From assembly GCF_026001925.1 (NCBI RefSeq), contig NZ_AP021871.1, positions 6,137-46,136 on the forward strand: a DNA stretch of 40,000 nucleotides, given 5' to 3'. This DNA is from Vibrio gangliei. GTDB taxonomy: Bacteria > Pseudomonadota > Gammaproteobacteria > Enterobacterales > Vibrionaceae. Below are positions 969-21,819 of this stretch, piece after piece. Every line of letters starts with the position of its first letter. The first letter of the stretch is position 1. Position numbers and translations under genes: made by a program. The notes under the pieces were generated by a model, which searched no databases, was not told where the DNA came from, and was given only the letters and a program-made list of their open reading frames with translations.

Positions 969-2728
969 TGACAACTGATTCAGAAACAAACCAAGTCAAT
1001 GACAGGGCTGCAAGCAATATGGTTGATTCTGCAGACCATGAATTAGCTATCATTCAAGACTTACTCGATGGTAACTACGATGTACTCAAAGATGAGTCCA
1101 TTTTAAACCTATGCAAGAAAGATGGTTCTTGCATATTGACCGAAAAGTTTGTGGTTTGTTGTACGGATATTACAAACCCATTTATTAATGATCTGATTCA
1201 AGCAGCGAATGAATACCAAAACAATTTAGACGCACCGAAGCAGGATGTAGTGGTCAGAATTGCTTCTCGCCAAGCAATAAAAGAGGTTCTATCAAAGTCT
1301 AATAATGATTTATTGAAAGACATATCCAATTCCGCAATCGACCTAAGTGACGAAGCAAATAAACAGGCTATCGGTGAGTTAGAGCAACTTTTATATGAAG
1401 TGCGCGAGAAGAAGGTGGCTGACGTTCACATCAAGGCCACAAGTGAATCTACGATTGTTTACGTTCGCACATCTGGTGGTGTCACTCGACATTATGACTC
1501 AGCGCGTGAGGCCGAATACGGTTTACGCTTGGGCGGGTTGATTTTTGGTACATACGCTTCTGAGGGCTCGAATGGTTCATTCTTGCCAACAGAGGCGAAT
1601 GACACAACGTTCAGTTGGCTTATAGAAGGTAAAAGCTGCCGGTTCCGTGCGTCAACGGTTCCAATTAGAAATGGATGTAAGATCGTCATTCGTTCACTTG
1701 AACCGTTTTCGAATGAAGTACCAACACTTACTGATTTAGGTTTTTTGCCCGCTCAGATAAAAATGCTGATGCACACAATAAATCAGCCGTCTGGCTCTTT
1801 ATTAATTACTGGTCAAACCGGTTCGGGTAAGACAACCACCCTAGCCTCTTTGGTTGATGCGATACCAGAAAATAAGAGTGTCCATACACTTGAAGATCCA
1901 ATTGAGCTTATTTTGGAAAATGCTTCACAAACAGAAATCAACGTTTCTGGTGATGAAGATAACCTAGGTGTGAAGATTGGTTCGTTTGCTTATTTTGGTA
2001 GACGTTTACTTCGTCAAGATATTGATGTTGGTGTGTTTGGTGAGCTGCGTGATAAGCAGTCTGTCCAGGTCTTTTATCACCTAGCAACCACAGGTCACTT
2101 ACTGTTAGGAACAATGCACGTCTCCAGCGCTACTGGTGTGCCAAACATGCTAATGAATACCTATGGTTTAAATCCATTGCAGGCCGCTGATAAAGACGCT
2201 TTCACATGTTTTATGCACCAAAAACTGCCCGATAAAGTTTGTCAGGCTTGTTGTCATTCGCATGATGAGCATAAGTCCATACTCAAAACCGAGCTCAAGG
2301 ACGCTTTGGTGTCAGGGGTTGAAGCGAGAATATTCTCTGCTGAGACACGCTTAAATCGCTTGAACTACGCTGAAAGCATTTTCAAAGGTCAACTTGAAGG
2401 TTTGAGATATTCAAATGATAAAGGCTGTAATCAATGTGAGTTTACAGGCAAGTCAGGTAAAACCGTTTTAGCCGAAATACTGATGCTTGATGATAATGTT
2501 CGTCAGTTTATTGAAGATCAAAAGACAACTGAAATGGTTGCTTACCTAAAAAGCCAAGGCTTTCCTACTGTACGAGATCATGCTTTGCACTGTATCAAGC
2601 TTGGCATTATTGACATTCATGCTGCTGCAAGGGTTGTTGGTGAGCTCGATAACTCCAATGCCACATCATTCAACTACGGTGAACTAATCGATGAAATAAG
2701 CATTAACACTGCTGAGGTAGGTGCTTAA
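968..2728 (+). CDS. pilQ: Type IV pilus assembly ATPase, GspE/PilB superfamily (R64 PilQ-type)
   Basis: Walker A GQTGSGKTT, Asp box LEDPIE, Walker B-like VGVFGELRD and His box TGHLLLGTMH. Cys motifs CQACC and CNQC are typical of GspE-family ATPases. Confidence 0.85.
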   Translation: MTTDSETNQVNDRAASNMVDSADHELAIIQDLLDGNYDVLKDESILNLCKKDGSCILTEKFVVCCTDITNPFINDLIQAANEYQNNLDAPKQDVVVRIASRQAIKEVLSKSNNDLLKDISNSAIDLSDEANKQAIGELEQLLYEVREKKVADVHIKATSESTIVYVRTSGGVTRHYDSAREAEYGLRLGGLIFGTYASEGSNGSFLPTEANDTTFSWLIEGKSCRFRASTVPIRNGCKIVIRSLEPFSNEVPTLTDLGFLPAQIKMLMHTINQPSGSLLITGQTGSGKTTTLASLVDAIPENKSVHTLEDPIELILENASQTEINVSGDEDNLGVKIGSFAYFGRRLLRQDIDVGVFGELRDKQSVQVFYHLATTGHLLLGTMHVSSATGVPNMLMNTYGLNPLQAADKDAFTCFMHQKLPDKVCQACCHSHDEHKSILKTELKDALVSGVEARIFSAETRLNRLNYAESIFKGQLEGLRYSNDKGCNQCEFTGKSGKTVLAEILMLDDNVRQFIEDQKTTEMVAYLKSQGFPTVRDHALHCIKLGIIDIHAAARVVGELDNSNATSFNYGELIDEISINTAEVGA

Positions 2729-3801
2729 TGAATATTGGGATTATCAGAGAGCATATAAAAAAGAAACTGTCTGAAATTAAAAAAAATAGGGTATTTAACC
2801 GTGAACAGCAATTAGAGCTTTTAGAAGACTTGATACTTGCTTTAAATGCCAAGCAGTCGCCACTTGAAGCCATGCGAAACTCACTAGAGTTCTGTACACC
2901 TAAAAACCGCACAGCGTACAGCGAAATCTATTCCGTTTTAAATCGCGGGGCTTCGTTGTCACGAGCGCTTGATGGATGGTTTGATCCAATGATTGTTCTA
3001 TCCATTAAAGCTGGTGAAGGGAACAGAAGACAGATTCAAGCATTAGAAAACGCCAAAACAACACTGGAAAACCAATCTGGTGTGACTGGAAAAATTGTTA
3101 AAGCAAACGGGTATCCTTTGTTCCTTATCATTCTAGGAAATGTAATGAATGCCGTTGTGGCGCAACTTGTCATTGAACCAATGCTGGTGGACAAGCCAAT
3201 TTTGAGCTTCCCTGTAATAACTCAAATCTCTTACAGTTTTGGCAAGTTCTTTATGTACAACTGGTACTTTTTGGTACTGGCTGTATTCTCGTTGATTTTT
3301 GTCATTCAAATCATACTGGCTACTTGGACTGCTGATGTACGATTCTCAAGGTTTGATAATTTCATCATCTTTAAACAATACCGGATATTAACAGCTTCTT
3401 CTTTCTTGCGCTCAATGGCTGTAATGCTCAAGTCTAAGCAGATACTCAAAACGGCATTAGACGCAGTTAAAGAATCAAGCGACCCCTATCTGGCCAACCA
3501 TGCAAAAGAAATGCTTTATTCAATTTCAGATAAGACCGGTGTAGGTCAGGTTATGGATACAGGCTTGCTTTTGGATCAAGAAATCGCTCGTATTAAGTCA
3601 ATCACATCTAAATCAAATGATGGAATTGATGAGCTTTTAGTCATGGTGGCGGAGCGTCACGAAAAAGTTCTGAACAAATCTTTAGACCGAATCGGTAAAT
3701 ATAGTGGCTACTTTGGATTGCTGGTGGTGGGGCTTCTAATCGTGCTGGCCTTTGCTGGACAAATGGCCGCGCAACTTGCTAATGCTGGAATGACCTTTTA
3801 A
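2728..3801 (+). CDS. pilR: Type IV pilus inner-membrane platform protein, GspF/PilC family (R64 PilR-type)
   Basis: Polytopic membrane protein of about 357 aa. Translationally coupled to the ATPase (TAATG overlap). Size and position are typical of GspF-family platform proteins. Confidence 0.7.
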   Translation: MNIGIIREHIKKKLSEIKKNRVFNREQQLELLEDLILALNAKQSPLEAMRNSLEFCTPKNRTAYSEIYSVLNRGASLSRALDGWFDPMIVLSIKAGEGNRRQIQALENAKTTLENQSGVTGKIVKANGYPLFLIILGNVMNAVVAQLVIEPMLVDKPILSFPVITQISYSFGKFFMYNWYFLVLAVFSLIFVIQIILATWTADVRFSRFDNFIIFKQYRILTASSFLRSMAVMLKSKQILKTALDAVKESSDPYLANHAKEMLYSISDKTGVGQVMDTGLLLDQEIARIKSITSKSNDGIDELLVMVAERHEKVLNKSLDRIGKYSGYFGLLVVGLLIVLAFAGQMAAQLANAGMTF

Positions 3802-3811
3802 CCGTCTAAAT
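3800..3811 (+). promoter_or_regulatory. Shared upstream motif AACCGTCTAAAT
   Basis: Copy of the AACCRYCTAAWT motif overlapping the pilR stop, 76 nt (motif end to start codon) upstream of the prepilin start. Confidence 0.4.
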
Positions 3812-3886
3812 TATGAAAATTCATAGGTATAGATAGAATTTCCCTGTGCACATTTAATCACTTTTAATTTTATTAATGGAAATATT

Positions 3887-4399
3887 ATGAAGAAATTTAA
3901 AGCTAACAAACAAGCAGGTTTCACTTTAATTGAACTTGTCATTGTTCTTGTCATTATGGGGGTATTGGGGGCTGCTATCGCTGCATTCCGAGGTGGTGCA
4001 GATTTTCAATCTCTCAAGAAGCAAACCAGTGATGGTATTTCGTTAATCGCTAGTGATGCACGAGCGAAAAAAGGTGCAGGTAACTACAACGTAATTACAG
4101 ATATTAGCGTCCTATGTAACGATGGATATTTAACTGAAACTATGTGTGGTACTGGTAATGATGGTGTCGGCACAAACCCATTCGGTGGTGACTGGGTTGT
4201 TGCACCGTCTACAAACTTTGGGGCAGCTCACCTTAGCGTTGGTGTAACTGGTATTCCAGATGGCCGTTTTGCTGAGTTAGCTGACACTTTAGCTGGTCAA
4301 TCGTACAAAGCTTGTCAATCTTCTACTGACTGCGCATCTATCACAGTGACCGAGCCTCAAGAGAATGGTGCTGGTGGCGAAATCTATATTGATATTTAA
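3887..4399 (+). CDS. pilS: Type IV prepilin (candidate major pilin, PilS position)
   Basis: Class III signal peptide MKKFKANKQAG / FTLIELVIVLVIMGVLG with Gly-1 and Glu+5. Has its own upstream region and an RBS-like GGAAA. Confidence 0.8.
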   Translation: MKKFKANKQAGFTLIELVIVLVIMGVLGAAIAAFRGGADFQSLKKQTSDGISLIASDARAKKGAGNYNVITDISVLCNDGYLTETMCGTGNDGVGTNPFGGDWVVAPSTNFGAAHLSVGVTGIPDGRFAELADTLAGQSYKACQSSTDCASITVTEPQENGAGGEIYIDI

Positions 4400-4402
4400 C
4401 TT

Positions 4403-4966
4403 ATGAAAAGAAACTCGACAGGGATGGCATTAATTGAGCTAATTATCGTTGTCGTGATCTTATCGGTGGTAGGGCTTGTCTCTACCACTTATTTTAACAA
4501 GATCGCCAACCCAACAGAATCAGCGAGTATAGCCAAATCCTATGTAAAAGACCTAGAGCTTGCAATTAAAGCTAAGACTGCGCAGCAGTGGCAAGATTGC
4601 GTGGACTTTCAGGATTTTACGTTTGAGCAATTGGCAAGTGAGAACTGGCTCATCAATCCAGAACAAATCTTTCCCACCAGCTTTGTCTTTGATGTTGAAC
4701 GCGATAAGACCAACCGAAGAATCCCGAGAATGGTCACAATACAGTTAAGTTTTCAAGATAGAGCTGTAGCGAACACCGTTGCGCAATCAATTCCTCACTC
4801 TAAAGTTAGCACGAATGAATCTGACTCTATCGTTAGCATTGGAGTTCGCATTAGCCCATTTTCGCGGGGGATGCAGTACATGAATAATGAATACACACAA
4901 TTACAGCTACCACCGCGCGTAGGTGATAAGTATTGTTTTGACCGCACAGCTTTCGATGGAAGTTAA
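4403..4966 (+). CDS. Type IV pilin-like protein (minor pilin)
   Basis: N-terminus MKRNSTG / MALIELIIVVVILSVVG has the prepilin cleavage motif with Glu+5. Lies 3 nt after the major pilin stop. Confidence 0.65.
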   Translation: MKRNSTGMALIELIIVVVILSVVGLVSTTYFNKIANPTESASIAKSYVKDLELAIKAKTAQQWQDCVDFQDFTFEQLASENWLINPEQIFPTSFVFDVERDKTNRRIPRMVTIQLSFQDRAVANTVAQSIPHSKVSTNESDSIVSIGVRISPFSRGMQYMNNEYTQLQLPPRVGDKYCFDRTAFDGS

Positions 4967-4967
4967 T

Positions 4968-5894
4968 ATGAAAAAATCAAAAGGTTTTGCGCTATTAGAA
5001 TTAATGATTGCATTGGTTATATTTGGTGTAGTCATGCAAGGTGTCTTTGCGTTTGCCAATAAAAAGCATTTCGATAATGACGTTAACTCTGCAATAGATA
5101 AGCTAGTTATGGAATTAACCATGATTCAGCAATACGAAGCTGAATCTCCTGAACCTTATGCAAGTGTAACAAGGTTCCCTGAAACACCTGCAGATTTGGT
5201 TGATAAAGGTTACGCCAATGAGTGTACCGCTACTGAGGTATCTGCGGGAAAATGCCAGTCCGTAGAAAAAACTTACTGGGGTGACTCAATCTCTTATAAC
5301 CGAATAGATAAAGATGCAGCGAACGATATAGTAATGCACTTAACATTGTCATATCCATTAACAACGCTCCCAACAGAAGAAGCCAACAGGGTAGCCGGAA
5401 TGTTTATGGGGCGTGTTCCATTCCTTACTTACGATAAACCATCAAAAACAATGACCGTTCGCGTAAACCGTTCCAGTGCAAGTGCAGCATTAGAAGGCTT
5501 TATTGATGCTGAGGGTAATAGGAAATTAGAAGATGATTGGGATGTTGGTGGTAATTACTCGATTGCCAATGCAAAGAACGTCACTGTGAGAACGCAGGAC
5601 GGAAAGCAAATGAATTTGGCTGCAAGTGTGATTTCGAGTTTTCCTGTTGCCAATGGCACTAGCGTTCCAAAACCAAGTTGTCCAGCAGGTTTAAAGCCAG
5701 CAATTTCTACCAGTGTAAAATCTATTGCCGGTTACAATATGCGTGAATTAGGGGCAATAAATACCTATTACACAGAAACTTCGAGCGCATGGAAAGTGTA
5801 CTTGCGGTATTATGCGGTTCGCCAGTCTGATGACGCATGGGTGCAACTTTCAAATGGTGAGATTAATGTGAATGTGTCTTGCATCACAAATTAA
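4968..5894 (+). CDS. Large minor pilin (PilV / tip-adhesin position)
   Basis: The internal start at 4968 gives MKKSKG / FALLELMIALVIFGVV (prepilin motif). The track ORF start at 4923 overlaps the previous gene and is rejected. The roughly 280-aa C-terminal domain contains Cys pairs. Confidence 0.6.
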   Translation: MKKSKGFALLELMIALVIFGVVMQGVFAFANKKHFDNDVNSAIDKLVMELTMIQQYEAESPEPYASVTRFPETPADLVDKGYANECTATEVSAGKCQSVEKTYWGDSISYNRIDKDAANDIVMHLTLSYPLTTLPTEEANRVAGMFMGRVPFLTYDKPSKTMTVRVNRSSASAALEGFIDAEGNRKLEDDWDVGGNYSIANAKNVTVRTQDGKQMNLAASVISSFPVANGTSVPKPSCPAGLKPAISTSVKSIAGYNMRELGAINTYYTETSSAWKVYLRYYAVRQSDDAWVQLSNGEINVNVSCITN

Positions 5895-5930
5895 ATCAAT
5901 AAGAAAAACAAATGATTAAAAATCACAAAT

Positions 5931-5946
5931 ATAATACTTGTATTAT
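5931..5946. promoter_or_regulatory. Palindromic operator ATAATACTTGTATTAT (perfect 7-2-7 inverted repeat)
   Basis: Perfect inverted repeat ATAATAC-NN-GTATTAT. Overlaps a -35-like TTGTAT of the protease promoter. Confidence 0.6.
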
Positions 5947-5960
5947 TCCCTGTGTGAATT

Positions 5961-5976
5961 ATAATACTTGTATGTT
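5961..5976. promoter_or_regulatory. Second operator copy (14/16 match), ATAATACTTGTATGTT
   Basis: Lies 30 bp centre-to-centre from the first copy. Overlaps a TATAAT hexamer (5960-5965) 31 nt upstream of the protease ATG. Confidence 0.5.
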
Positions 5977-5995
5977 GTGAAAAAGGAATTAAATC

Positions 5996-7294
5996 ATGAA
6001 AAAACTTACAACCTCCGTTACTCTTTTATCTGCGTTAGTTTCTGCTAATGTTTTTGCAGTTGATACCAGTTTGGTTTATCACAACGTAGACCGTGTTGAT
6101 CAAGATAATATTGTTATTGCGAATAGTGATTCTTCTGCATACTGCACCGGTACGGTAATTGGCGGGAAGTGGGTTATCACTGCTGCTCACTGTAATCAAG
6201 GCTCGTCCGTTGATGGCGTGTATCAAACGTTGAGTGTAAAAAAATCTAATATTCCGACTGAATATACTGAGTACAAAGCTCAGACTGAAAACCCTGACTC
6301 AACCGGTTATAGCTCACCAATGCTTGATGTTGCCGTTTGGGAATTGGATGATGCACTAAAGCACTCTACATTCGCCCCAATTTCCAACGTTACATTGTCA
6401 GATAATGATTTACTTCGACTATATGGATTTGGTCAAACCAATCCAGAATTAAACTATATAGAACAACGTACATTGGCGAATTGGCACTACGGGAATTGGG
6501 ATTTAGCTAATACCCCAAATGTCGAGGCTTGCACTATTGACGGTGCAACTCATGATGATGGCTATTGTGAAACGTTAGATCCAAATATGATGGTGACGTA
6601 TGAAATAAATCAGGGGCGAATCATTGATGGGGACTCTGGCGCAGCATTATTTAAAGATGGCTACATGGTTGGCATCTTACACTCATTATCACCATACGGC
6701 TTACAAGATGCGGGGCACTCATATCACGCAGATAGCGGTACAACTGAGGGGGTCAATGTTAGTGACATTGTTAGCTCAGATGCTGACTTGGATTCAATGA
6801 ACGGTAGCTATGCGAATCGCATGGATTATGCAGCCACGCAAAACTTTTTATTAGATAATATTAACGCATGGAACTACGCATCTTGGGTAAAAGTAAATAG
6901 CTCAAATGCTGTGACTGTTAAGATTCAATCGCTTCATAACTCAACAGTAAATTTATTAAACACGATTACCACGACTGGTGATGCTGATGTAGATACCAGC
7001 ACTATTGCTTGTTTCTCTCCTGAACACGACAACAACACTGCCGAGCACCATAGTGCCGATAGTGTACAGCCCTTTGATGTGTGTTCGTTAAGTGTCACGA
7101 GTAATGGTGGTGAGGGTCAAATTCTATTAGGTGATAATCAAGTTATCCATGTGAATAAATGGGATGTAGATTCTGTTGATCCTGAAGAACCCGACAATGG
7201 CGGTGAAAGTTCAGGTGGCTCTAGCGGTGGTTCTCTTGGTGTGTTTGGTTTATTAGGCTTACTGGGATTAGGAATAGCTAGAAGAAGAAAATAA
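5996..7294 (+). CDS. Secreted trypsin-like (S1) serine protease with GlyGly-CTERM sorting signal (VesB-like)
   Basis: Sec signal peptide. Catalytic motifs are WVITAAHC (His), DVAVWEL (Asp) and GDSGAAL (Ser). The C-terminus GGSSGGSLGVFGLLGLLGLGIARRRK matches the GlyGly-CTERM / rhombosortase pattern. Confidence 0.8.
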   Translation: MKKLTTSVTLLSALVSANVFAVDTSLVYHNVDRVDQDNIVIANSDSSAYCTGTVIGGKWVITAAHCNQGSSVDGVYQTLSVKKSNIPTEYTEYKAQTENPDSTGYSSPMLDVAVWELDDALKHSTFAPISNVTLSDNDLLRLYGFGQTNPELNYIEQRTLANWHYGNWDLANTPNVEACTIDGATHDDGYCETLDPNMMVTYEINQGRIIDGDSGAALFKDGYMVGILHSLSPYGLQDAGHSYHADSGTTEGVNVSDIVSSDADLDSMNGSYANRMDYAATQNFLLDNINAWNYASWVKVNSSNAVTVKIQSLHNSTVNLLNTITTTGDADVDTSTIACFSPEHDNNTAEHHSADSVQPFDVCSLSVTSNGGEGQILLGDNQVIHVNKWDVDSVDPEEPDNGGESSGGSSGGSLGVFGLLGLLGLGIARRRK

Positions 7295-7308
7295 ATATTC
7301 CACGAAAA

Positions 7309-7336
7309 GGGCGTGATTTATTCACGCCCTTTTTTA
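7309..7336 (+). terminator. Rho-independent terminator after the protease gene
   Basis: GGGCGTGA / TCACGCCC stem followed by a TTTTTT run. Confidence 0.8.
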
Positions 7337-7355
7337 TTACAAAAAATTCAACTTT

Positions 7356-7367
7356 AACCGCCTAAAT
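7356..7367 (+). promoter_or_regulatory. Shared upstream motif AACCGCCTAAAT
   Basis: One of 6-7 copies of (T)TTAACCRYCTAAWT. Lies 64 nt (motif end to start codon) upstream of the 7431 start. Confidence 0.45.
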
Positions 7368-7430
7368 GTGATTCCAGTCTCGAACTGTGCAACTTTTAAT
7401 GTTCCATTTATAAAAACAGGAGAATGGAAC

Positions 7431-7943
7431 GTGAAAACAAATAAATATTTGCTTGCTGTACTGATAGCTCTTTCCTCTGTCGGGGTTGTTAATGCTGCCG
7501 ATGTAAGCACTATGCCTATCCAATCGAACAACCATACGAGCATTAGCGTTTCAAGTGATGCGAGTAATAGCAATTGGAGTAAATCACCCAAACCAACATC
7601 GACGGACACCTACCAGTGGAAATCGGTTTATTCAGGTTCGGCAAAAGATACAGTAGCTATAGGTAGCAATTCAAAATTTGTATCTGTCCAATTGGCTGGT
7701 AAGTCTGCAAAAACTTATGCGGTAGATCCAAGCTCAAGTAGCTATACGCTGGATACTTTTAGTTATAAGTCTTATACAAGCAATGGTAACATAGGAGGAT
7801 GTGCGCAAGGGAGCTGTGGAGGGCTAACAGAAACAACAACCACAGTGATATTAAAGAAAGAAGGTAATTCGGTTTCGTCTTACACCACATCTGGCTCATA
7901 CAGTTATAAATCACCAATGATTACAAAAGTTTTGGTGATGTAA
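7431..7943 (+). CDS. Secreted protein, paralogue A of the QSNNH family (unknown function)
   Basis: GTG start 7 nt after AGGAGAA. Signal peptide ends VNA. Mature N-terminus is ADVSTMPIQSNNHTSISVSSDASNSNWSKSPKPTS. The upstream part of the track ORF (7368) is rejected. Confidence 0.65.
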   Translation: MKTNKYLLAVLIALSSVGVVNAADVSTMPIQSNNHTSISVSSDASNSNWSKSPKPTSTDTYQWKSVYSGSAKDTVAIGSNSKFVSVQLAGKSAKTYAVDPSSSSYTLDTFSYKSYTSNGNIGGCAQGSCGGLTETTTTVILKKEGNSVSSYTTSGSYSYKSPMITKVLVM

Positions 7944-7947
7944 ATCA

Positions 7948-7973
7948 AATGAGGCGAGCTCAATCGCCTCATT
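7948..7973 (+). terminator. Hairpin after paralogue A (weak terminator, no T-run)
   Basis: AATGAGGCGA / TCGCCTCATT, a 10-bp stem with a 6-nt loop. Confidence 0.4.
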
Positions 7974-8012
7974 CAATTGTTCAATTTGTTGAGAAAAATT
8001 AATGCGGTTACA

Positions 8013-8300
8013 ATGAACAAATCTAAATTTACCTTCATGCCTCTTGCATTGTTTTTGGGGGCTGCAAATGCTGCTGACATAAGCAATATGACTGTTCAAT
8101 CGAATAATCATTCGAGCGATATGCCATCAGGCTCTAAATGCGGTGATTATGTAATGTCCGGCAACAAAACAAGAGTTAATGTTTATTGTATGGGACAAAG
8201 CGTTCGAAATGGCTGCCCAAAGGGGTTCACTCATCGAAACTTCGGATATTTTGAAGCCGGTGGAGGCGAACGGAAATATGTTTGGTGTACGAAAAACTGA
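8013..8300 (+). CDS. Small Cys-rich secreted protein, paralogue B of the QSNNH family
   Basis: Signal peptide ends ANA. Mature N-terminus ADISNMTVQSNNHSS, followed by an unrelated Cys-rich C-terminal part of about 60 aa. Confidence 0.55.
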   Translation: MNKSKFTFMPLALFLGAANAADISNMTVQSNNHSSDMPSGSKCGDYVMSGNKTRVNVYCMGQSVRNGCPKGFTHRNFGYFEAGGGERKYVWCTKN

Positions 8301-8341
8301 GATAACTTCTAATTGATTAATATCGACAGACATGTTCAGCG

Positions 8342-8359
8342 TTATTACCACGGTAATAA
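8342..8359. promoter_or_regulatory. 18-bp perfect palindrome TTATTACCACGGTAATAA (copy 1), core of a 28-bp hairpin
   Basis: An identical 18-mer recurs at 34053-34070. Here it also forms the stem CAGCGTTATTACC / GGTAATAACGCTG downstream of paralogue B, and ends 9 nt before the GACCACCTAAAA motif. Confidence 0.5.
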
Positions 8360-8368
8360 CGCTGATTT

Positions 8369-8380
8369 GACCACCTAAAA
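8369..8380 (+). promoter_or_regulatory. Shared upstream motif GACCACCTAAAA
   Basis: Variant copy of the AACCRYCTAAWT motif, 60 nt (motif end to start codon) upstream of the 8440 start. Confidence 0.4.
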
Positions 8381-8439
8381 ATGATCATATTTTCACAGTG
8401 AATACAATGTAACCTCTCATAATAAATAGGGGCTACATA

Positions 8440-8988
8440 ATGAAAAAATTCCTCTCTGTAATCATCGCAATTTGCGTTGGAAGTTCGGCCTATGCTGCCG
8501 ATATTGAATCAATGCCAACACAAAGCAATAATCATACAAATATTAGTGTTTCTGCGAATACAAGCGAAAGCAACTGGAAGAAGTCACCAAAACCCACCAG
8601 TAAAAATAATGGCGGTGTATGGGGCACTAGCACTGCAAACAGTCAATCCGCTTCATTTCCATCAGGGGCAAAAGCCGTTTCAATTATCACGGCTTACTCT
8701 AAAAATGCAGATAATAGTTATGCTTCAAATTTGCAACCATACTCCCAAGCCTTTTCTGGCACCTTCGCAGTACCAACATCAGGAACAAAAACCTACACAG
8801 TAGGCACTATGAGATATGCGGTTTGCTCAGGTGGTGCTCATGGTGGTGCATCATGCACTCAAAAAAGTATCGATTGTAAGGTTTCCGTATCTTCAACACG
8901 AATAAATCTGATTGGTAATGCGAATACAGGTTTGAGCGGAACCAAGTATTGCTTCCCAAATATCAGGGTTGTGACTTATTACCGATAA
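8440..8988 (+). CDS. Secreted protein, paralogue C of the QSNNH family (unknown function)
   Basis: Signal peptide ends AYA. Mature N-terminus is ADIESMPTQSNNHTNISVSANTSESNWKKSPKPTS. The C-terminal region is unrelated to paralogues A and B. Confidence 0.65.
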   Translation: MKKFLSVIIAICVGSSAYAADIESMPTQSNNHTNISVSANTSESNWKKSPKPTSKNNGGVWGTSTANSQSASFPSGAKAVSIITAYSKNADNSYASNLQPYSQAFSGTFAVPTSGTKTYTVGTMRYAVCSGGAHGGASCTQKSIDCKVSVSSTRINLIGNANTGLSGTKYCFPNIRVVTYYR

Positions 8989-9013
8989 GTTCCACTTCGG
9001 GTTAAACGTGGAT

Positions 9014-9025
9014 AACCACCTAATT
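9014..9025 (+). promoter_or_regulatory. Shared upstream motif AACCACCTAATT
   Basis: Copy of the AACCRYCTAAWT motif, 63 nt (motif end to start codon) upstream of the first gene of the mating-pair-formation operon. Confidence 0.45.
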
Positions 9026-9053
9026 TTGCCCCGAATTCAATCTACAAATAACC

Positions 9054-9087
9054 TATCGCCATGTTTTATCACATGGCGATTTTTTTT
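9054..9087 (+). terminator. Strong intrinsic terminator-like hairpin plus T8 run abutting the 9088 start codon
   Basis: ATCGCCATG / CATGGCGAT 9-bp stem with an 8-nt loop, then TTTTTTTT, then ATG. Confidence 0.7.
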
Positions 9088-9399
9088 ATGAAAAGAACAG
9101 CAATATCGAGTGGTTTGCTTTTTCTTTTGCTATCGGCACCGGCATTAGCAATGAGCAGCAATAACTCAAAAGAACCTGACATTATCCGCGAGCGGATGGG
9201 GTTAGAAGTGATTGAGTCACAACTTGGCAAAATCATTGAGCACAGTGAAAGTTTAAAAACATACTCCGATCAGTCAGCTAACCGAAAATTTAATTACCAA
9301 GCCTTTGAGATTCAAATCAAGAATCTTCAAGACCAAATAACCGAGTACCTTGAGCACCCTCCATTGCCGCGAGGCGTTGATGCGCTTCAGGAGAAATAA
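9088..9399 (+). CDS. Secreted small protein at the RAQPRD-family position of MPF-G transfer modules
   Basis: Signal peptide MKRTAISSGLLFLLLSAPALA. The C-terminal PPLPRGVD sits where family members carry RAQPRD. The track start at 9061 lies inside the terminator hairpin and is rejected. Confidence 0.45.
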   Translation: MKRTAISSGLLFLLLSAPALAMSSNNSKEPDIIRERMGLEVIESQLGKIIEHSESLKTYSDQSANRKFNYQAFEIQIKNLQDQITEYLEHPPLPRGVDALQEK

Positions 9400-16923: not shown

Positions 16924-16989
16924 GGCACCACCAAATTGGTTTGCGAGCGATGTCGCAAACCATGCGGTAAACTTGTTGGTAAAAGTAGT

Positions 16990-17214
16990 ATGCCGAAGAA
17001 AAAATACACTAAATACGATAAAGAAACACTACAGGCAATATATGACACTCACGGCAGTATAGCCAATGTGTCTAGGGCTCTTGGTGTGACTTATCCAACC
17101 GCACATGCGTGGATGAGAAAGTTTGGCGTAAAGACTAAAAAGCTGGTTATAGGAAACCGCGTTTACCTATTACTGGATTGCAGTGTCGTCATGCACGCGA
17201 GTACATCCAATTAA
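16990..17214 (+). CDS. Small HTH DNA-binding protein
   Basis: MPKKKYTKYDKETLQAIYDTHGSIANVSRALGVTYPTAHAWMRKFGV is a resolvase/terminase-type HTH. The TTG start at 16936 in the track is less likely. Confidence 0.5.
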   Translation: MPKKKYTKYDKETLQAIYDTHGSIANVSRALGVTYPTAHAWMRKFGVKTKKLVIGNRVYLLLDCSVVMHASTSN

Positions 17215-17378
17215 CACGTATCGAATTTTGCAAAACCGCAGGATTAAGCATTCCACCGGTACTTGAGTTTGAGTTGGGTAAATCGACCCCTCGAAAGAAC
17301 ACGGTTGAGAAAATAATGTCGGTGTTTTTGCGATATGGAATCGTTTTTTCTGAAGATGGAAGCTTTAAAAAGCTTTGA
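17178..17378 (+). CDS. XRE-family HTH protein (start uncertain, no ATG)
   Basis: LQCRHAREYIQLTRIEFCKTAGLSIPPVLEFELGKSTPRKNTVEKIMSVF is a typical XRE/Cro fold signature. The frame is open from 17139 and overlaps the previous gene by 37 nt. Confidence 0.5.
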   Translation: MQCRHAREYIQLTRIEFCKTAGLSIPPVLEFELGKSTPRKNTVEKIMSVFLRYGIVFSEDGSFKKL

Positions 17379-17439
17379 TCTTAGGGGCGGGAACCTGTGT
17401 GAGTAGATTCATACTAAGTATTAAAGTGTCATACTATAA

Positions 17440-18734
17440 GAGGGCGTTCAGAATTCTGTGTCAGTTAATTTTGACTAAATATCTAAGACGTCATCCAAAC
17501 GACCTTCAAAATGAATCGCCAGTTGAGACAATGTCATATTCCAGTTCTGGATTGGCATTGTCCATTTCTTAGATGCATTCAATATCCCAGCATACAACAG
17601 CTTAAGCAAGCTGTTTTCATTTGGAAAACCACCTTTAGTTTTGGTCAGCTTTCGAAACTGACGATGTACCGCCTCAATAGCATTGGTGGTATATATAGCT
17701 TTCCGAACATACTCTGGATATTTAAAGTAAACCGACAGGTTTACCCATTTATTACGCCATGAGCGTAATACTATTGGATATTGTTGGCCCCACTTAGCTT
17801 CTAATCGGTCTAACTCTATTTCAGCTGCTTCCTTAGTTACCGCTCGATAAACTGGTTTCAGATCTGCCATAAACTCTTTTTGGTGCTTAGATGCGACATA
17901 TTTTATTGAGTTACGAATTTGATGGACGATGCACAACTGAACTTCAGTGTTTGGATAAATAGTGGCAATGGCTTCAGGGAAACCAACCAAGCCATCTACG
18001 CAACTGATTAAGATATCCTCAACCCCTCGATTATGTAAATCAGTTAAAACTGATAGCCAATAATTTGCGCCTTCAGACTCTGATAAGTATAGCCCGAGCA
18101 GTTCTTTTTTACCGTCGATATTCAAGCCTAAAATTGTGTATATCGCTTTACTGACATAGCGACCATCCTCTCTAATTTTATAGTGGATGGCATCAAGCCA
18201 AATGAACGGGTATATAGCGTCTAAAGGACGCTGTTGCCATTCTTTAAGCTCTGGTATTAAGCGGTCTGTGACAGCAGTAATTGTGGCCTCAGAGACGTCG
18301 ATACCATACATATCTTCAACATGTCCTCGAATATCACGATAGCTCATTCCTAACGAGAACATAGAAAGGATTTTACGATCAATTTCATCAGTCAGCTTGG
18401 TTTGATTTTTCTTGATAAGTTGAGGTTCAAAAGAGCCTGAACGGTCGCGAGGAGTATCAAGTTCAAATGCTCCGACAGAAGACTTAACAGTCTTCTTAGA
18501 GGTTCCATTTTTACGATTTGGCTGGTCATCATTATCGATGTGTTGTGCAAGCTCAGCTTTTAAAGCAGCTTCCGTAATTTGCTTGATAAGAGGAGTTAAA
18601 AAGCCATCTTTGCCTGTTAAATCTTGTCCAGATTGAAGAGCTTTAATGGCTTGCTCTAGATCGAAATCATTATTCATGTGTCATTCCTTTTTTATCTATT
18701 TTAGGAGAAATGACACAGATTTCTAAACACTACC
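17440..18734 (-). mobile_element. IS256-family insertion sequence (about 1.3 kb)
   Basis: Imperfect terminal inverted repeats G.GTT.AGAA.TCTGTGTCA lie at both ends. It carries a single mutator-type transposase. TACTAT is present on both flanks. Boundaries are good to within a few nt. Confidence 0.8.
17475..18677 (-). CDS. IS256-family (mutator-type) transposase
   Basis: 400 aa. The N-terminal DLEQAIKALQSGQDLTGKDGFLTPLIKQITEAALKAELAQHI and the overall pattern are typical of IS256 transposases. Confidence 0.9.
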   Translation of the reverse strand: MNNDFDLEQAIKALQSGQDLTGKDGFLTPLIKQITEAALKAELAQHIDNDDQPNRKNGTSKKTVKSSVGAFELDTPRDRSGSFEPQLIKKNQTKLTDEIDRKILSMFSLGMSYRDIRGHVEDMYGIDVSEATITAVTDRLIPELKEWQQRPLDAIYPFIWLDAIHYKIREDGRYVSKAIYTILGLNIDGKKELLGLYLSESEGANYWLSVLTDLHNRGVEDILISCVDGLVGFPEAIATIYPNTEVQLCIVHQIRNSIKYVASKHQKEFMADLKPVYRAVTKEAAEIELDRLEAKWGQQYPIVLRSWRNKWVNLSVYFKYPEYVRKAIYTTNAIEAVHRQFRKLTKTKGGFPNENSLLKLLYAGILNASKKWTMPIQNWNMTLSQLAIHFEGRLDDVLDI

Positions 18735-18895
18735 TACTATGGCGGCGTTCTCCAATCGGTACGCTGCCTTTTTTTGATTACGAATGTTATGGCTCTAAGA
18801 AAGTTCTGCCCCAAAGCAATTTAGATTGTTTACTCCACTCAAGTATCTGTTCCAAATAAGCCCTAATTTTTGTTATGTTTGGTTCATGGCAAGGA

Positions 18896-19879
18896 TCATT
18901 GATTTTCCTTATTGTTTTCAATAAAGATTTTATTTAGTGGGCTTACAGTACCCGCAAAATGTTCGCCAATAACATGGGTATAGATTTGTGTCGTCGCTAC
19001 ATCTGAATGTCCTAATAGCTCTTGGACTGTACGAATATCTTGCCCCGAGCGCAGCAGTTCGGTAGCGAAGCTATGACGGAAGGTATGGCATGTTATTCGT
19101 TTATTAAAGATTTTAGCCTGTTGCACCGCTCGTTTGAGAGCCTTTCTTGGTGCAGAATCGTGTAAATGATGCCGACAAAGCTGATTAGTCAGTGGGTGCC
19201 GACAGATGCTTAAAGAAGGAAAGATAAACATCCAAGCAATTTGTTTAAAAGCGTTCGGGTACTTTTTACCAAGGGCGTGTGGAAGCGAGGGACCGATGCC
19301 TTGTTTGATATCTTCTTCTTGTATTTTTGACGCTTTCTGAATTTGCAATTGAAGAGAACCAATTAACGTTGGGCTAAGTAAAGTTACGCGATCTTTTTTC
19401 CCTTTCCCATCTCGCACGGTTAAAGATAGGTTTTGTAAATCAAGATCTTGAACTCTAATTCTCAAACACTCATTAACTCTAAGTCCAGAACCATACAACA
19501 GAGAAAAAATGATGTGATTAACACCAGAAAGGTGTGACAGTATCAGTTGGACTTCATTTGGCGTAAGTACGCTCGGAACCTTGCGCTGCTTTTTAGCATA
19601 AGTAAAACCTAGATCACCAAGCGGTCTTTGTAAAAACTGGTTGTAAAGGAACGCAATCGCATTAAGCGCGACTTTTTGAGTGTTGATAGCGACGTGTTGT
19701 TCATTAGCAAGATAAGACAGATAGGCTGTTACCTCAGTCGTTCCCATATCTTGAGGATGCTTTAGCTTATTAAAGCGAATGAAGTATTTTATCCAGTATA
19801 TATAGGCCTTTTCTGTTTTGAGGCTATAGCCTCGCATTCGCATGTGTCTACGGATTTCTTCAATGAATTTGCTTGCCAT
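18896..19879 (-). CDS. intI: Integron integrase, IntI2-like, apparently intact
   Basis: Tyrosine recombinase motifs HTFRHSFAT and [16 protein letters not shown]. Carries the IntI-specific insertion [21 protein letters not shown]. By eye it is much closer to IntI2 / Shewanella-type than to IntI1, with no internal stop. Confidence 0.9.
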
Positions 19880-20060
19880 TCCCCACCTCCCAAAACTGTT
19901 TTTTTATACAGTTTATTGGTGTTAGAAGGAGTTTGAGTATGAAAAATGGCTTGTTTTATCAGGAGTAGTGGCTCATTTTGTCGGTAGAGCAATTAGTAAG
20001 TCGTTGTTAATAGGTAAGTTGAAGCAAGAACTCCCCAAGATAACATGCCACGTAAAAAGT

Positions 20061-20187
20061 GATAACAGGCCGGCTCGTTTTTATGTGAAGGTAAAATAAT
20101 AAAATTTATGTATATTCTTTATTTTTTAATGGTTTATGTTAGATTGATTGTAAGTTAGGTTGGAGGGAAAACGAGCCGGTCTGTTAT
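20061..20187 (+). repeat. Inverted repeat of about 127 bp (21-bp arms GATAACAGGCCGGCTCGTTTT / AAAACGAGCCGGTCTGTTATT) around an AT-rich core; attC-like or attI-associated
   Basis: The arms match at 19/21 positions. The outer ATAAC ... GTTAT resembles R''/R' cores but deviates from GTTRRRY. Confidence 0.4.
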
Positions 20188-20503
20188 TAAGAATGTTAAA
20201 TTGCATTTTAGAACCTTATTCTTAAGGCTGGGAGTTACTTTGAGTTTATCCATCGTATTGAGAAGTAACTTCTTAACCTTAATTTGAGGTTGAACGTCTT
20301 TCGTGCGTAAAAGTCGTGGGAAGTTTTGTTGGTTTTCGTGAGTTCAACATCAATCAAACCTAATTATTTTTAGTTTTATCAGCAATGGTAACTTTCGGTT
20401 TGTTTTGGGTTATGTGGAGCAGCTGCATTAGGTTAAATAAAATTGTGTGGTAAAAAGCATGCAGTTACAATGTCGTAGGCTCCTTAAGTGTATTTATCTG
20501 GCA

Positions 20504-20631
20504 ATTTAACAAGTCGCTTAAGGCGGACTTCACAACGCTCGGCATTTTTGGTTCAAATTTGAGTTTTGTGATTACGGCGGTATTTTTGAGTGAAGTGGGG
20601 GCGTTGTTCGCCACTTAGCTCAGCGTTAGAT
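20504..20631 (+). other. attC site closing an ORF-less cassette
   Basis: ATTTAAC ... GTTAGAT with internal imperfect complementarity. No credible ORF lies between about 20188 and 20504. Confidence 0.6.
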
Positions 20632-20690
20632 TTCATGTTAGCTATAATTTCGCAATATTTAGTATAAAAACCATAACTAGGAAAAAAGAT

Positions 20691-21122
20691 ATGACTGAGA
20701 ATGCCCAAAAAAATGCAAAACCTTTTTCTCAAACGTTTTTTCATGGAACCAAAGCAGATCTTAAATTGGGAGATCTTATAGAAACAGGGTTTAATTCAAA
20801 TTTTGGACAAAATAATAAGGCTAAGTATATATTCTTGACAGCTACACTAGATGCTGCCATTTGGGGAGCAGAGCTTGCCCTAGGTAATGGTCGCGAAAGA
20901 ATTTATTTGGTTGAGCCAACAGGTCCAATTGAAAATGATCCTGACCTAACGGATAGAAAGTTCCCAGGGAATCCAACCATGTCATATCGTTCAACCCATT
21001 CATTTAAAGTTGTAGGTGAAGTATCAAGCTGGCAGGGTCATTCATTAGAGCAAGTTAAAGCAATGAAAGATGGTTTAAATAAACTACATGAACAGGGCAT
21101 TAACTCTTTAAATGAAATCTAA
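20691..21122 (+). CDS. arr: Rifampin ADP-ribosyltransferase (Arr family)
   Basis: FFHGTKADLKLGDLI ... AAIWGAELA ... IYLVEPTGPIENDPDLTDRKFPGNPTMSYRS closely parallels Arr-2 as I recall it. About 143 aa, with RBS AGGAAAA. Confidence 0.85.
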   Translation: MTENAQKNAKPFSQTFFHGTKADLKLGDLIETGFNSNFGQNNKAKYIFLTATLDAAIWGAELALGNGRERIYLVEPTGPIENDPDLTDRKFPGNPTMSYRSTHSFKVVGEVSSWQGHSLEQVKAMKDGLNKLHEQGINSLNEI

Positions 21123-21816: not shown

Positions 21817-21819
21817 ATC

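Follow-up and report, generated by a model that had tools for sequence, protein, structure and literature searches.

Three secreted proteins sharing an N-terminal tag beside the pilus block of a conjugative element in Vibrio gangliei: candidate interchangeable heads of a mating pilus

Introduction

Why should three neighbouring genes of a conjugative element encode secreted proteins that begin alike after the signal peptide and then have nothing in common? Three such genes, here called A, B and C, were noticed directly behind a pilin block in a 40,000-nucleotide stretch of Vibrio gangliei DNA (the window), and a first-pass annotation of the letters proposed that they encode cargo of the pilus. 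To our knowledge, protein export by pili is known from a few virulence pili only, and two of them, TCP and CFA/III, carry one cargo each. TcpF of Vibrio cholerae TCP and CofJ of ETEC CFA/III are both exported by a type IVb pilus, and their N-terminal export signal binds the trimeric minor pilin, TcpB or CofB, at the pilus tip (PMC9565799, PMC10120004, PMC6048534). Both consist of a signal peptide, a flexible N-terminal segment and a folded body (PMC10120004, PMC9565799), and an aromatic residue in the first ~10 mature residues is decisive (Tyr5 of TcpF, Phe10 of CofJ, the YGF motif/clade; PMC9565799). In conjugation, the PilV tip adhesins of the IncI1/IncI2 thin pili (R64, TP114) set recipient specificity by shufflon-switched C-termini (PMC9045228, PMC10654706), and the PAPI-1 conjugative pilus is a related system for comparison (PMC5297154).

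Results

Genes A, B and C encode unrelated bodies behind one N-terminus

Gene A (7431..7943, + strand, 170 aa, WP_105903617.1 of V. gangliei) starts with a GTG codon at 7431, preceded by AGGAG 8 nt before it, and encodes a signal peptide (residues 1-22), an N-module (ADVSTMPIQSNNHTSISVSSDASNSNWSKSPKPTS) and a Ser/Thr/Gly-rich C-domain of 113 aa with 2 Cys. Gene B (8013..8300, + strand, 95 aa) encodes a signal peptide, a truncated N-module (ADISNMTVQSNNHSS) and a four-Cys domain of 58 aa, and gene C (8440..8988, + strand, 182 aa) a signal peptide (residues 1-19), an N-module (ADIESMPTQSNNHTNISVSANTSESNWKKSPKPTS) and a C-domain of 128 aa with 4 Cys. In each signal peptide a positively charged n-region is followed by a hydrophobic core and an A-x-A-type site, with cleavage predicted after VNA, ANA and AYA, respectively, and before AD, giving mature proteins of 148, 75 and 163 residues. 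These signals are of the Sec type and prepilin-type signals are absent from all three. In all three, the signal peptide is followed by the conserved tag, by a low-complexity linker of Ser/Asn/Thr that ends in W..KPT and by a C-terminal domain unrelated to the other two. By BLASTP, the similarity between A and C was confined to the N-terminus (residues 1-59, 56% identity, E 3e-18) and that of B to either of them to residues 1-35, while the C-terminal domains were no closer to each other than shuffled sequences (z of 1.2 for A-C, 0.4 for A-B and 1.1 for B-C). The proteins end in VLVM, CTKN and TYYR. The secreted reading frames, the mature sizes, the Cys-rich middle protein (4 Cys in 58 residues) and the unrelated bodies of the first-pass annotation were all recovered; its statement that the three proteins have the same mature start holds for the shared N-terminus, but the module of B is truncated. 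Since the orthologue of B, P0003/L001s (123 aa), has the full module together with the same Cys-rich domain (C-domain z of 42-44), the short module of B is explained by 28 residues having been lost in frame, which took away the second half of the module.

Searches of Pfam, NCBIfam, PHROGs and PDB sequences gave no match to A, B or C, and P0003 had none among PDB sequences either. A and C are orphans, with self matches only in a word-indexed search of 5.8e9 proteins, and A had no tblastn match in plasmids. A single-sequence AF2 model of C, with a mean pLDDT of just 49, left residues 25-72 unstructured and the rest all-beta, and Foldseek found no match to this low-confidence model; homology to TcpF or CofJ was accordingly not detected in sequence (A, C and P0003 against PDB sequences) or in fold (the C model). 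As those two proteins are unrelated themselves, such homology is no strict hallmark of their class. None of the three proteins has a protease domain or a GlyGly-CTERM tail, and no immunity-like partner genes were found beside them. The C-domain of A weakly but significantly resembles the 'mid' protein of V. scophthalmi pVS127 (z 7.1). A kinship between the Cys-rich domain of B and that of the pES100 type, considered for their similar Cys spacing, was discarded when hhalign found nothing.

The tag is conserved under purifying selection and is very rare

The mature N-terminal core common to A, B and C is AD[IV]-x-x-[ML]-x-[IVT]-QSNNH; the tag peptide is ADVSTMPIQSNNHTS and the full module a 35-mer. 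Hydrophobic and polar side chains alternate over the first ~13 mature residues (D-h-S-x-h-x-h-Q-S-N), as in an edge beta-strand. The invariant core contains neither Lys nor Arg, and the tag has no aromatic residue at mature positions 4-10, with His or Tyr at position 13 only. Over the 35 module codons, the Nei-Gojobori method gave a pS of 0.91, which is saturated, against a pN of 0.24 for A and C, and dN/dS values of 0.16 (A-L001s) and 0.20 (C-L001s). Because synonymous sites are saturated between the copies, the tag peptide is, on this codon comparison, under purifying selection and not the product of a recent duplication, as had been proposed at first sight. An N-glycosylation sequon in the core (N-H-T/S) was also considered and dropped, as relatives with QSNTY or QSNSY do not keep it.

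Module-bearing genes were found in four locus types among ~15 billion proteins. When 1.84 billion cluster representatives were searched exhaustively with an HMM, only A, B, C, the B orthologue P0003 and a divergent relative, P0005, were recovered; one further borderline match, P0006 (a 721-aa repeat protein, E 9.7e-4), has no signal-peptide context and was treated as probably spurious. A degenerate DNA pattern of the tag core located one true extra locus in JGI metagenomes (L010, of the L006 type), besides a chance match (L009), and had no match in viral contigs. Alignment searches of metagenomes with the module gave no related loci, and the six-frame translation of the 40 kb window contained no further copy. 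No lipobox was present in six of the seven module proteins of this lineage, and a membrane anchor in none. In the remaining one, L006s, the tag comes after LAGC-GGVTA, which is lipobox-like; judged by this motif, L006s could be a lipoprotein whose tag is not at a free N-terminus, so that a free N-terminus may not be needed for the tag.

The genes occupy a fixed slot between a pilus block and transfer genes

Upstream of the three genes, all on the + strand, lie a GspE/PilB-type pilus assembly ATPase (968-2728) and a platform protein (2728-3801), for whose L001 orthologues the Pfam families T2SSE and T2SSF were matched, the major pilin (3887-4399), a second small pilin of the same block (4403-4966) and a PilV-like minor pilin (4968..5894, 308 aa, with FALLE after the leader MKKSKG), which is the candidate docking partner. 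They are followed by a trypsin-like serine protease (5996..7294, + strand) with conserved His65, Asp111 and Ser214 and a GlyGly-CTERM tail (NCBIfam TIGR03501), the only TIGR03501 match found. Gene A begins after the protease, and A, B and C are on the same strand as the PilV-like gene, 1.5 kb downstream of it. The pilin leaders are short (6-11 residues, F or M at +1); the earlier description as a type IVb pilin block therefore fits the compact operon but not the pilin class. Beyond the genes, at 9.0-16.7 kb, matches to TIGR03758, 03745, 03750, 03746, 03749, 03752, 03751, traC_PFL_4706 and RAQPRD were obtained; all stay below the curated NCBIfam cut-offs except TIGR03752 and traC_PFL_4706. By this TIGR03744-TIGR03752/TIGR03758 plus RAQPRD gene content, the genomic context is an MPF-G integrative conjugative element of the ICEHin1056/ICEclc/PAPI-1 type. 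Neither megablast of the first 12 kb of the window against plasmids nor a search of GTDB genomes with protease and TIGR03752 alignments revealed related loci, and this type of element appears to be absent from, or undetected in, species-representative genomes.

The slot of the module genes, after three pilin genes and the GlyGly-CTERM protease and before the transfer operon of a conjugative element, was the same in a syntenic pilus/MPF-G element at every locus with enough flanking DNA (L001-L003, L006-L008, L010 and L011, the latter being Shewanella xiamenensis pXY8M38-1). The module thus co-occurred with the pilus loci of such elements wherever the context could be read, which was in three of the four locus types. 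The exception, L004, is a 2 kb contig with tandem module genes; the gene upstream of them is not the protease, and the upstream fragment had no tblastn match in plasmids. The content of the slot is variable, with one gene in L001, a different one in L006 and three in the window. The orthologue of B is the only slot gene common to the window and L001, A and C being absent from the latter. The module is conserved across elements whose PilV proteins share just 42% identity.

A motif, ACC[AG]CCTAA (extended form TTTAACCRYCTAA), lies ~70 nt upstream of A (7357) and C (8370). Other copies precede the gene for the major pilin (3801), the RAQPRD transfer operon (9015) and genes located at 26.9 and 29.8 kb. 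With at most one mismatch it occurred 34 times, versus 12.1 +/- 3.4 in shuffled sequences. The copies before A (TTTAACCGCCTAA, 7353..7365, + strand) and C (TTTGACCACCTAA, 8366..8378, + strand) bear out the report that two of the three genes carry the upstream motif of the transfer regulon; A and B probably form one transcript. No sigma-70-like promoter was found on the + strand at the motif upstream of A. A further copy (GATAACCACCTAA, 9011..9023, + strand) precedes the RAQPRD/transfer operon and marks the downstream edge of the slot, so that C sits between the copies at 8370 and 9015. In L001 the motif before the RAQPRD/transfer operon is kept (at 10507), and a degenerate copy of the gene C motif (CCATCTAA) stands at the same place without a gene.

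No shufflon-like multi-copy inverted repeats were found in 3800-9200 and no Rci-type recombinase in or near the slot, the sole tyrosine recombinase among the window ORFs scanned being an integron integrase (18896-19879). Other insertions in the window are an IS256 element, the integron and a group II intron.

A sister lineage on plasmids carries another tag and exchanges bodies

More than 100 plasmids of Vibrio, Shewanella and Aeromonas form a sister lineage in which a secreted protein lies beside the same PilV-like pilin. The sister pilus block was found on pVA1-type plasmids of the shrimp pathogen (AHPND), on the squid-symbiont plasmid pES100 and on further plasmids of Vibrio, Shewanella and Aeromonas; a review of pVA1 gene functions lists the pilin and the protease by annotation only. 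The secreted proteins of this lineage have a different conserved mature N-terminus, (E)KVTYE(K/D)A.., in which Tyr or Leu occupies mature position 4-6, and this tag occurs on at least seven unrelated bodies. PilV-like homologues were present in related elements and 141 plasmids, and protease homologues in 123 plasmids. Of the 13 plasmid loci inspected, 10 have the protease next to the PilV-like gene; in the remaining three it did not appear in the stretch read, the Aeromonas hydrophila plasmid locus being one without a protease in the stretch read. A secreted protein stood between PilV and protease in 7 of the 12 plasmid loci read downstream of PilV; the loci of V. cholerae, V. scophthalmi and S. 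baltica OS117 have one or two additional genes ahead of the protease.

Similar bodies were found on both types of tag, in L006s and the S. baltica mid protein (55% identity, E 1.6e-39, z 52), in L004d and the P. damselae mid protein (z 12.8) and in A and the V. scophthalmi mid protein (z 7.1). In a Mantel test of 14 loci, divergence of PilV was correlated with that of the tag (r 0.59, p 0.0003) and not with that of the body (r -0.02, p 0.54). This co-divergence of tag and PilV may only mirror the joint inheritance of adjacent DNA, and it applies to the protease just as well. Taken over more than a dozen related elements, the comparison suggests that the tag belongs to the pilus system and that the bodies are exchangeable.

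The PilV-like pilin resembles TcpB/CofB in a low-confidence model, and one body is fused to a PilV-like protein

The AF2 model of the PilV-like pilin is poor (pLDDT 49.6), and all seven Foldseek matches that it gave at E <= 1e-3 among 350,542 PDB chains were TcpB or CofB, including their peptide complexes; the next match had an E of 0.21. The TM score of this poor model was 0.25 to full-length TcpB and 0.47 with normalisation to the C-terminal half of that protein. From PDB sequences, a profile built on 13 PilV relatives retrieved the generic pilin helix only, with no match to TcpB/CofB at the sequence level.

The L006s-type body also forms the extreme C-terminus of proteins of 667 aa and 1363 aa on Salinimonas and Alteromonas plasmids, whose genes come after two pilin genes in type IV pilus blocks, the Alteromonas record being typed MPF_I. 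By hhalign, the N-terminal part of these fusion proteins matched the PilV family (75.6%, E 2.4e-5, 143 columns), and tail-fibre repeats are present in the C-terminal part of the Alteromonas protein. Both giant proteins begin with an apparent Sec signal instead of a prepilin leader, and no trypsin-like gene is annotated next to their genes.

Discussion

The reading that we prefer, with a probability of about one half, is that A, B and C are exchangeable adhesin heads which the mating pilus exports and displays by means of an N-terminal docking tag, by analogy with TcpF and CofJ. The proteins would first be exported by Sec and freed of their signal peptides; the first ~13 mature residues would then dock on the TcpB/CofB-like PilV minor pilin capping the pilus, and the growing pilus would carry the docked protein through the secretin and show it at its tip. 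The variable C-terminal domain, predicted to be mostly beta and to contain disulfides, would do the work, most likely as a head that binds a receptor or acts as an adhesin, and we consider the 'effectors' of the first-pass annotation less likely. The head would decide which recipient cells the mating pilus seizes, and three heads under the transfer-regulon motif would give the V. gangliei element three specificities. As PilV is short (308 aa) and shufflon-like inverted repeats were not found, a specificity domain supplied in trans is plausible. Recombination within or next to the shared tag could add, remove or exchange separate head genes. That the surface-anchored trypsin-like protease may trim or release tethered heads is pure speculation.

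We counted in favour of pilus-displayed heads the tag layout, the linkage to the pilus block, the purifying selection, the swapping of bodies, the Mantel result, the fusion to PilV and the TcpB/CofB match, and against them the missing aromatic residue at positions 4-10, the LAGC of L006s, the half module of B, the poor PilV model, the Sec signals of the fusions and the context of L004. The wider extension is put forward more tentatively, and we give it less credence than the reading of the locus itself: conjugative type IV pili of Vibrionaceae, Shewanella and Aeromonas, those of pVA1-type AHPND plasmids and pES100 among them, might form a widespread and so far undescribed class that exports and displays interchangeable adhesin heads through lineage-specific N-terminal docking tags and a TcpB/CofB-like tip pilin. 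Mating-partner specificity would then come from plug-in cassettes and not from a shufflon, and the three heads of V. gangliei would be the most expanded example known. If true, pilus-mediated protein export would extend to conjugation, one docking tag could serve many cargoes, and the choice of recipients by mating pili lacking a shufflon would be explained, giving conjugative elements a new route to choosing partners; short lineage-specific peptide tags might be used as handles for export and display, or as targets against plasmid spread.

With TcpF and CofJ, A, B and C share a Sec signal peptide, a conserved N-terminal segment that is predicted to be flexible (for C in a low-confidence model) and a body that is predicted to be folded and partly disulfide-bonded. 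Their genes are in or directly beside the pilus operon, with a motif in common with the pilin gene. In both cases each pilus lineage has a signal of its own (here a putative one), whereas the bodies bear no relation to one another, just as TcpF is unrelated to CofJ. The tag of the plasmid lineage has Tyr at mature position 4-6, comparable with Tyr5 of TcpF, whereas that of the present lineage lacks an aromatic residue in the first ten positions, and A, B and C have no sequence similarity to either protein. Further differences are the conjugative-element pilus, the short pilin leaders, the shuffling of bodies between lineages, the GlyGly-CTERM protease as part of the block and the size of PilV (308 aa versus ~420-520 aa for TcpB/CofB). 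Several cargo genes per locus stand against one in TCP and in CFA/III, and three cargoes would be unusual in that comparison.

The neighbouring protease is the main rival partner and as close a candidate as PilV. The shared N-terminus could have been made for it, serving as a segment for recognition or cleavage, as a pro-peptide or as a tether resembling an inhibitor, in which case the proteins would leave by the host T2SS, like VesB-type proteases, and mature at the cell surface; we regard this as unlikely, though ahead of the other alternatives. VesB-type GlyGly-CTERM serine proteases of Vibrio are substrates of rhombosortase and the T2SS, and the product of 5996-7294 has the same trypsin fold signature and GlyGly-CTERM tail, unlike A, B and C, which have neither such a tail nor a protease domain. 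Its catalytic triad is intact, its gene adjoins the genes for secreted proteins in the integrative-element lineage and adjoins them or lies close by in the plasmid lineage. Rhombosortase and GlyGly-CTERM sorting are features of the host taxa (Vibrio, Shewanella, Aeromonas, Aliivibrio, Photobacterium). The linker is often supplied with Lys (KSPKPTS), as is position 2 of the tag in the plasmid lineage (EK before VTYE), but the invariant core of the present tag has no Lys or Arg, and the conserved Lys precedes Pro, a bond that trypsin-type enzymes cut poorly. Moreover, in the Alteromonas and Salinimonas blocks the L006s-type body is carried by a PilV-like head and no trypsin-like neighbour is annotated, and a role for the protease leaves both the TcpB/CofB-like PilV and the fusion unexplained. 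Processing by the protease is compatible with pilus-displayed heads as an added step, not as a replacement.

It is somewhat less probable still that A, B and C are periplasmic or outer-membrane-associated mating accessories acting without a pilus, in surface or entry exclusion, recognition of the recipient at the T4SS junction or envelope remodelling, with the N-terminus as a sorting or anchoring segment. Co-regulation with the transfer genes through the shared motif and the lipobox-like signal of one relative are in keeping with such a role, and so are the variable domains, which are typical of exclusion and specificity determinants, as in the F and SXT exclusion systems. However, the genes travel with the pilus block over MPF_G, MPF_T and mobilizable-only (MOBC/MOBP) records instead of following one type of T4SS, six of the seven proteins lack a lipobox and none has a membrane anchor, and fusion with a protein resembling PilV and tail fibres suggests a place at the distal end of a fibre. 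The least probable alternative, that unrelated accessory cargo (small toxins, bacteriocin-like proteins or niche factors) was captured in a hot spot behind an existing promoter, signal peptide and leader cassette, to which alone the likeness of the 5' ends would be due, would suit the variable slot, the other insertions in the window and the lack of homologues of A and C in 5.8 billion proteins, but capture alone does not hold 13-35 mature residues under purifying selection past synonymous saturation, the tag is kept across elements with PilV proteins just 42% identical, the sister lineage follows an identical principle with a tag of its own, and immunity-like partner genes are missing.

If A, B and C are indeed heads of the mating pilus, the system would resemble the shufflon PilV of R64 and TP114 in combining, on a conjugative type IV pilus, a constant part with alternative C-terminal recognition parts, and in its proposed role, the choice of recipients during mating in liquid. 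It would differ in that the variable parts are separate Sec-secreted proteins and not pilin segments, that neither an Rci-type recombinase nor sfx-like inverted repeats lie in or near the slot, and that all variants can be expressed together instead of in alternation.

Phage tail fibres and polymorphic receptor-binding proteins combine a conserved N-terminal attachment region with exchangeable C-terminal tips. The genes described here are not phage genes, their products are small (95-182 aa) and the bodies have no PHROG match; what they have in common with tail fibres is the conserved N-terminal adaptor followed by horizontally swapped distal domains, and one of the bodies tips a protein with tail-fibre repeats.

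Gene Order and the Shared N-Terminus of A, B and C

The window is from Vibrio gangliei, and its first 17 kb carry, all on the + strand, a compact type IV pilus block that encodes the pilus assembly ATPase at 968-2728, the platform protein at 2728-3801 and three pilins at 3887-4399, 4403-4966 and 4968-5894 (the last a 308-aa PilV-like minor pilin, hereafter PilV). A trypsin-like serine protease (5996-7294) whose tail is of the GlyGly-CTERM (rhombosortase) type follows, then genes A (7431-7943, GTG start; WP_105903617.1), B (8013-8300; WP_157946055.1) and C (8440-8988; WP_157946054.1), and then the transfer gene set of an integrative conjugative element of MPF-G type (RAQPRD, TIGR03758, 03745, 03750, 03746, 03749, 03752, 03751 and a TraC-like ATPase), among whose matches only TIGR03752 and the TraC model exceeded the curated NCBIfam cut-offs. 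The part examined yielded no recognisable homologue of PilMNOP or of a retraction ATPase, and none of the window ORFs examined was identified as a prepilin peptidase gene. The three pilins have short leaders of 11, 7 and 6 residues; position +1 is occupied by Phe or Met and position +5 by Glu. These traits are type IVa-like; the operon is nonetheless compact.

The first-pass annotation had described A, B and C as Sec-exported proteins with A-x-A cleavage sites, one common mature start and unrelated remainders, and this architecture was borne out. All three continue after the signal peptide as AD[IV]..[ML]..QSNNH (the tag). In BLASTP, the similarity between A and C was confined to residues 1-59 (56% identity, E 3e-18) and that of B to residues 1-35, while the C-terminal domains (bodies) resembled each other only at the level of shuffled sequences. 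No further copy of the module was found in the window. Within the 35 codons of the module, the share of sites that differ between A and C is 91% for synonymous and only 24% for non-synonymous sites; between backbone orthologues of this element and its nearest relative, pS is about 0.7 and pN 0.06-0.13. The A-C values indicate an old duplication in which the peptide has been maintained by selection, in agreement with the earlier preference for purifying selection over recent duplication.

The three genes are linked to the pilus block and to its regulon motif. The upstream motif previously noticed on two of them, TTTAACCRYCTAA, was found about 70 nt upstream of A and C, and again ahead of the gene for the major pilin, of the RAQPRD operon and of two operons further on. 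As TTTAACC[AG][CT]CTAA, it lies on the + strand at 3801, 7357, 8370, 9015, 26888 and 29769, and at 6369, 10507 and 20177 of the metagenomic relative L001, 40-90 nt upstream of the element's operon starts, with positions kept in the relative. No sigma-70-like promoter was found at these places, and the motif is probably an operator or promoter element of the regulon. Hairpins lie 3' of A (weak), B (perfect, 14 bp) and C (with a T-run), and A and B are probably transcribed together, C separately. The first ATG (9061) of the RAQPRD ORF as listed falls within a terminator-like hairpin that has a T-run (9055-9080), and the true start is more likely the ATG at 9090 (MKRTAISSGLLFLLLSAPALA...).

Distribution of the Module

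The module profile was run exhaustively against the 1.84 billion representatives of clusters that cover about 15 billion proteins, and it matched only A, C, B, two further proteins (P0003 and P0005) and one borderline repeat protein. P0003 is a B orthologue with a full-length module, so that 28 residues must have been lost from B. It is encoded on metagenomic contigs L001-L003, whose sequence runs collinear with that of the window (74-77% nucleotide identity), with genes for the secretin, the ATPase, the three pilins, the protease, P0003, RAQPRD and TraC in that order. Compared with L001, the window has two extra segments, 7337-8047 (gene A) and 8383-9010 (gene C), and degenerate motif copies flank the single gene of L001 on both sides; the slot between protease and RAQPRD operon therefore gains and loses genes.

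A third syntenic element was reached through its PilV homologue (42% identity) at five loci (L006-L008, L010 and L011, the last being Shewanella xiamenensis plasmid pXY8M38-1). Its slot gene carries the core AADISSLAVQSNSYSS on yet another body, and in the L006-type protein the tag comes after LAGCGGVTA, so that cleavage is possible by signal peptidase I (between VTA and AD) or signal peptidase II (between LAG and C). P0005 is encoded on L004, a contig of 2 kb, and adjoins a second, more divergent module gene (QDTSGLIIEDNTY..QSNSQWANTTKPT). The seven module proteins have six unrelated bodies and the consensus D-[IVT]-S-x-[LM]-x-[IVT]-[QE]-[SD]-N-x-[HY], followed by a low-complexity linker, W..(K/L)PT and an aromatic residue at the body start. 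Downstream of the tandem genes, L004 has two direct repeats of about 170 bp (1500-1900), and a 64-bp stretch there (1990-2053) matches, at 77% identity, non-coding DNA of the window (38337-38399) just upstream of the gene at 38559; the match may represent a common small element or an attachment sequence.

A Sister System on Plasmids

Relatives of the PilV-like pilin were detected by tblastn in 141 plasmids and those of the protease in 123, including pES100 and pVA1-type AHPND plasmids, in Vibrio, Shewanella, Aeromonas, Aliivibrio, Photobacterium and Dongshaea. The backbones were typed MPF_T, MPF_G or only mobilizable (MOBC or MOBP), which indicates that the pilus block moves between conjugation systems. 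A review of pVA1 gene functions gives the pilin and the protease by annotation only (PMC7409025). The protease homologue lies inside the conjugative pilus block at most loci inspected (L012-L017, L020-L023).

Downstream of the PilV-like gene, these plasmids encode a Sec-signal protein of 135-242 aa (mid), directly before the protease in 7 of the 12 loci read that far. Tags are lineage-specific: the mature N-termini of mid form families of their own (EKVTYDKAVADA, EKVTYEKALADA, KVSYEDAIES, EEKMTYEKAMAS, EKVTYEDALASS, KVTYDDAIKS, EERWSYDKAMES, GEKITLDMAIEQ, QMTLDDVNRN and an Aeromonadaceae type, QSIDEAW/GVDEVW), and the bodies fall into at least seven unrelated classes. Plasmid pES100, a V. vulnificus plasmid and a V. 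cholerae plasmid have a close PilV and the same tag with three unrelated bodies. In S. baltica OS117 pSBAL11702, a ChpB/MazE-type toxin-antitoxin pair lies between mid and protease genes (L021 4228-4823), so the block tolerates insertions at this junction.

Exchange of Bodies and the Fusion of One to a PilV-Like Head

Bodies are exchanged between the two lineages. That of the L006 slot protein is 55% identical to the body of the mid of S. baltica pS19503, which has a KMTYE tag (E 1.6e-39, z 52). The P0005 body is homologous to that of the Photobacterium damselae mid (z 12.8) and more weakly similar to that of V. cholerae (z 4.5), a likeness that extends to the CW motif at the C-terminus and to both Cys residues; the A body matched the V. 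scophthalmi mid body with z 7.1 (about E 0.01 corrected for 153 pairs). In Mantel tests on 14 loci, PilV distances correlated with those of the tag (r 0.59, p 0.0003) and not with those of the body (r -0.02, p 0.54), and the tag-body correlation was r -0.13; the body is thus exchanged and the tag remains linked to the pilus block. Co-divergence of tag and PilV is also expected from simple co-inheritance and does not single out PilV over the protease, and a tag directed at the protease, with export by a T2SS, is an unlikely though serious alternative.

A PilV-directed tag is favoured by two giant proteins. The L006-type body forms the last ~100 residues of a 1363-aa Alteromonas macleodii pTE101a protein annotated 'phage tail protein' (L018 2236-6327) and of a 667-aa Salinimonas iocasae protein (L019 4336-6339), both encoded directly behind two pilin genes in a plasmid type IV pilus block; the Alteromonas record was typed MPF_I. 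Their N-terminal residues 45-192 aligned with a PilV profile built from 13 members (hhalign probability 75.6%, E 2.4e-5, 143 columns), including the hallmark motifs (W/F)P..(T)DL...G(F/Y) and GD.D.GGN, and just upstream of the body the Alteromonas protein matched PHROG tail-fibre families. A third kind of conjugative pilus thus has this body at the distal tip of a fibre derived from PilV. On the standard reasoning for gene fusions, free-standing versions should act at the distal end of PilV, with the caveat that the giant proteins start with what looks like a Sec signal and no prepilin leader.

Proposed Docking on the Mating Pilus

We consider it about an even chance (probability roughly 0.5) that A, B and C are docked by their tag on PilV, exported and displayed by the mating pilus, and bind recipients. 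After Sec export, the tag would bind to the PilV cap and may do so by adding a beta-strand, as its alternating pattern suggests; the pilus would then take the protein through the secretin and display it. Were the bodies to bind recipient surfaces, A, B and C would represent three specificities, and the surface-anchored protease might, more speculatively, trim or release these heads.

Binding of an N-terminal export signal, that of TcpF or CofJ, is known for two minor pilins, TcpB and CofB (PMC9565799, PMC10120004, PMC6048534). The V. gangliei system, which is not a shufflon system, is like TcpF/CofJ export in layout and logic, a likeness short of established class membership, and A, B and C have no homology to either protein. 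Sequence profiles of PilV gave nothing beyond the generic pilin helix. Among 350,542 PDB chains, the only Foldseek matches of its AF2 model with E <= 1e-3 were TcpB (7w63, 7w64, 6mic) and CofB (5ypz, 5ax6, 4qs4), the next being at E 0.21; the model, from three sequences, is poor (pLDDT 49.6), with low TM-scores of 0.25 overall and 0.47 when normalised to the C-terminal half of TcpB. The model is suggestive of a TcpB/CofB-like partner. Against docking, the structural evidence is weak, the lineage-1 (AD[IV]..) tag has no aromatic residue at position 4-10 and so differs from TcpF and CofJ in their aromatic determinant, the L006 protein has a possible lipobox, and the B module is shortened. Mating accessories that act independently of the pilus are somewhat less probable than a protease-directed tag, and the bodies being unrelated cargo behind a captured leader is the least probable reading, the tag being under selection.

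In full-text literature searches, no account was found of conjugative type IV pili that export or display exoproteins. If docking on PilV is correct, it would be a multi-cargo, cassette-like form of pilus-tip docking, on mating pili, set in a large, unstudied family of marine plasmids and ICEs.

An Apparent Insertion within the Transfer Region

About 9.3 kb of the window (16924-26182) are missing from the syntenic relative L001. This stretch contains an IS256-family transposase (17475-18677, - strand), an integron integrase (18896-19879, - strand; TIGR02249, E 1e-119), several small + strand ORFs that could be cassettes (20.7-23.5 kb) and a group II intron reverse transcriptase (24259-25731), and gives the impression of an ICE transfer region into which an integron, an IS and an intron have inserted.
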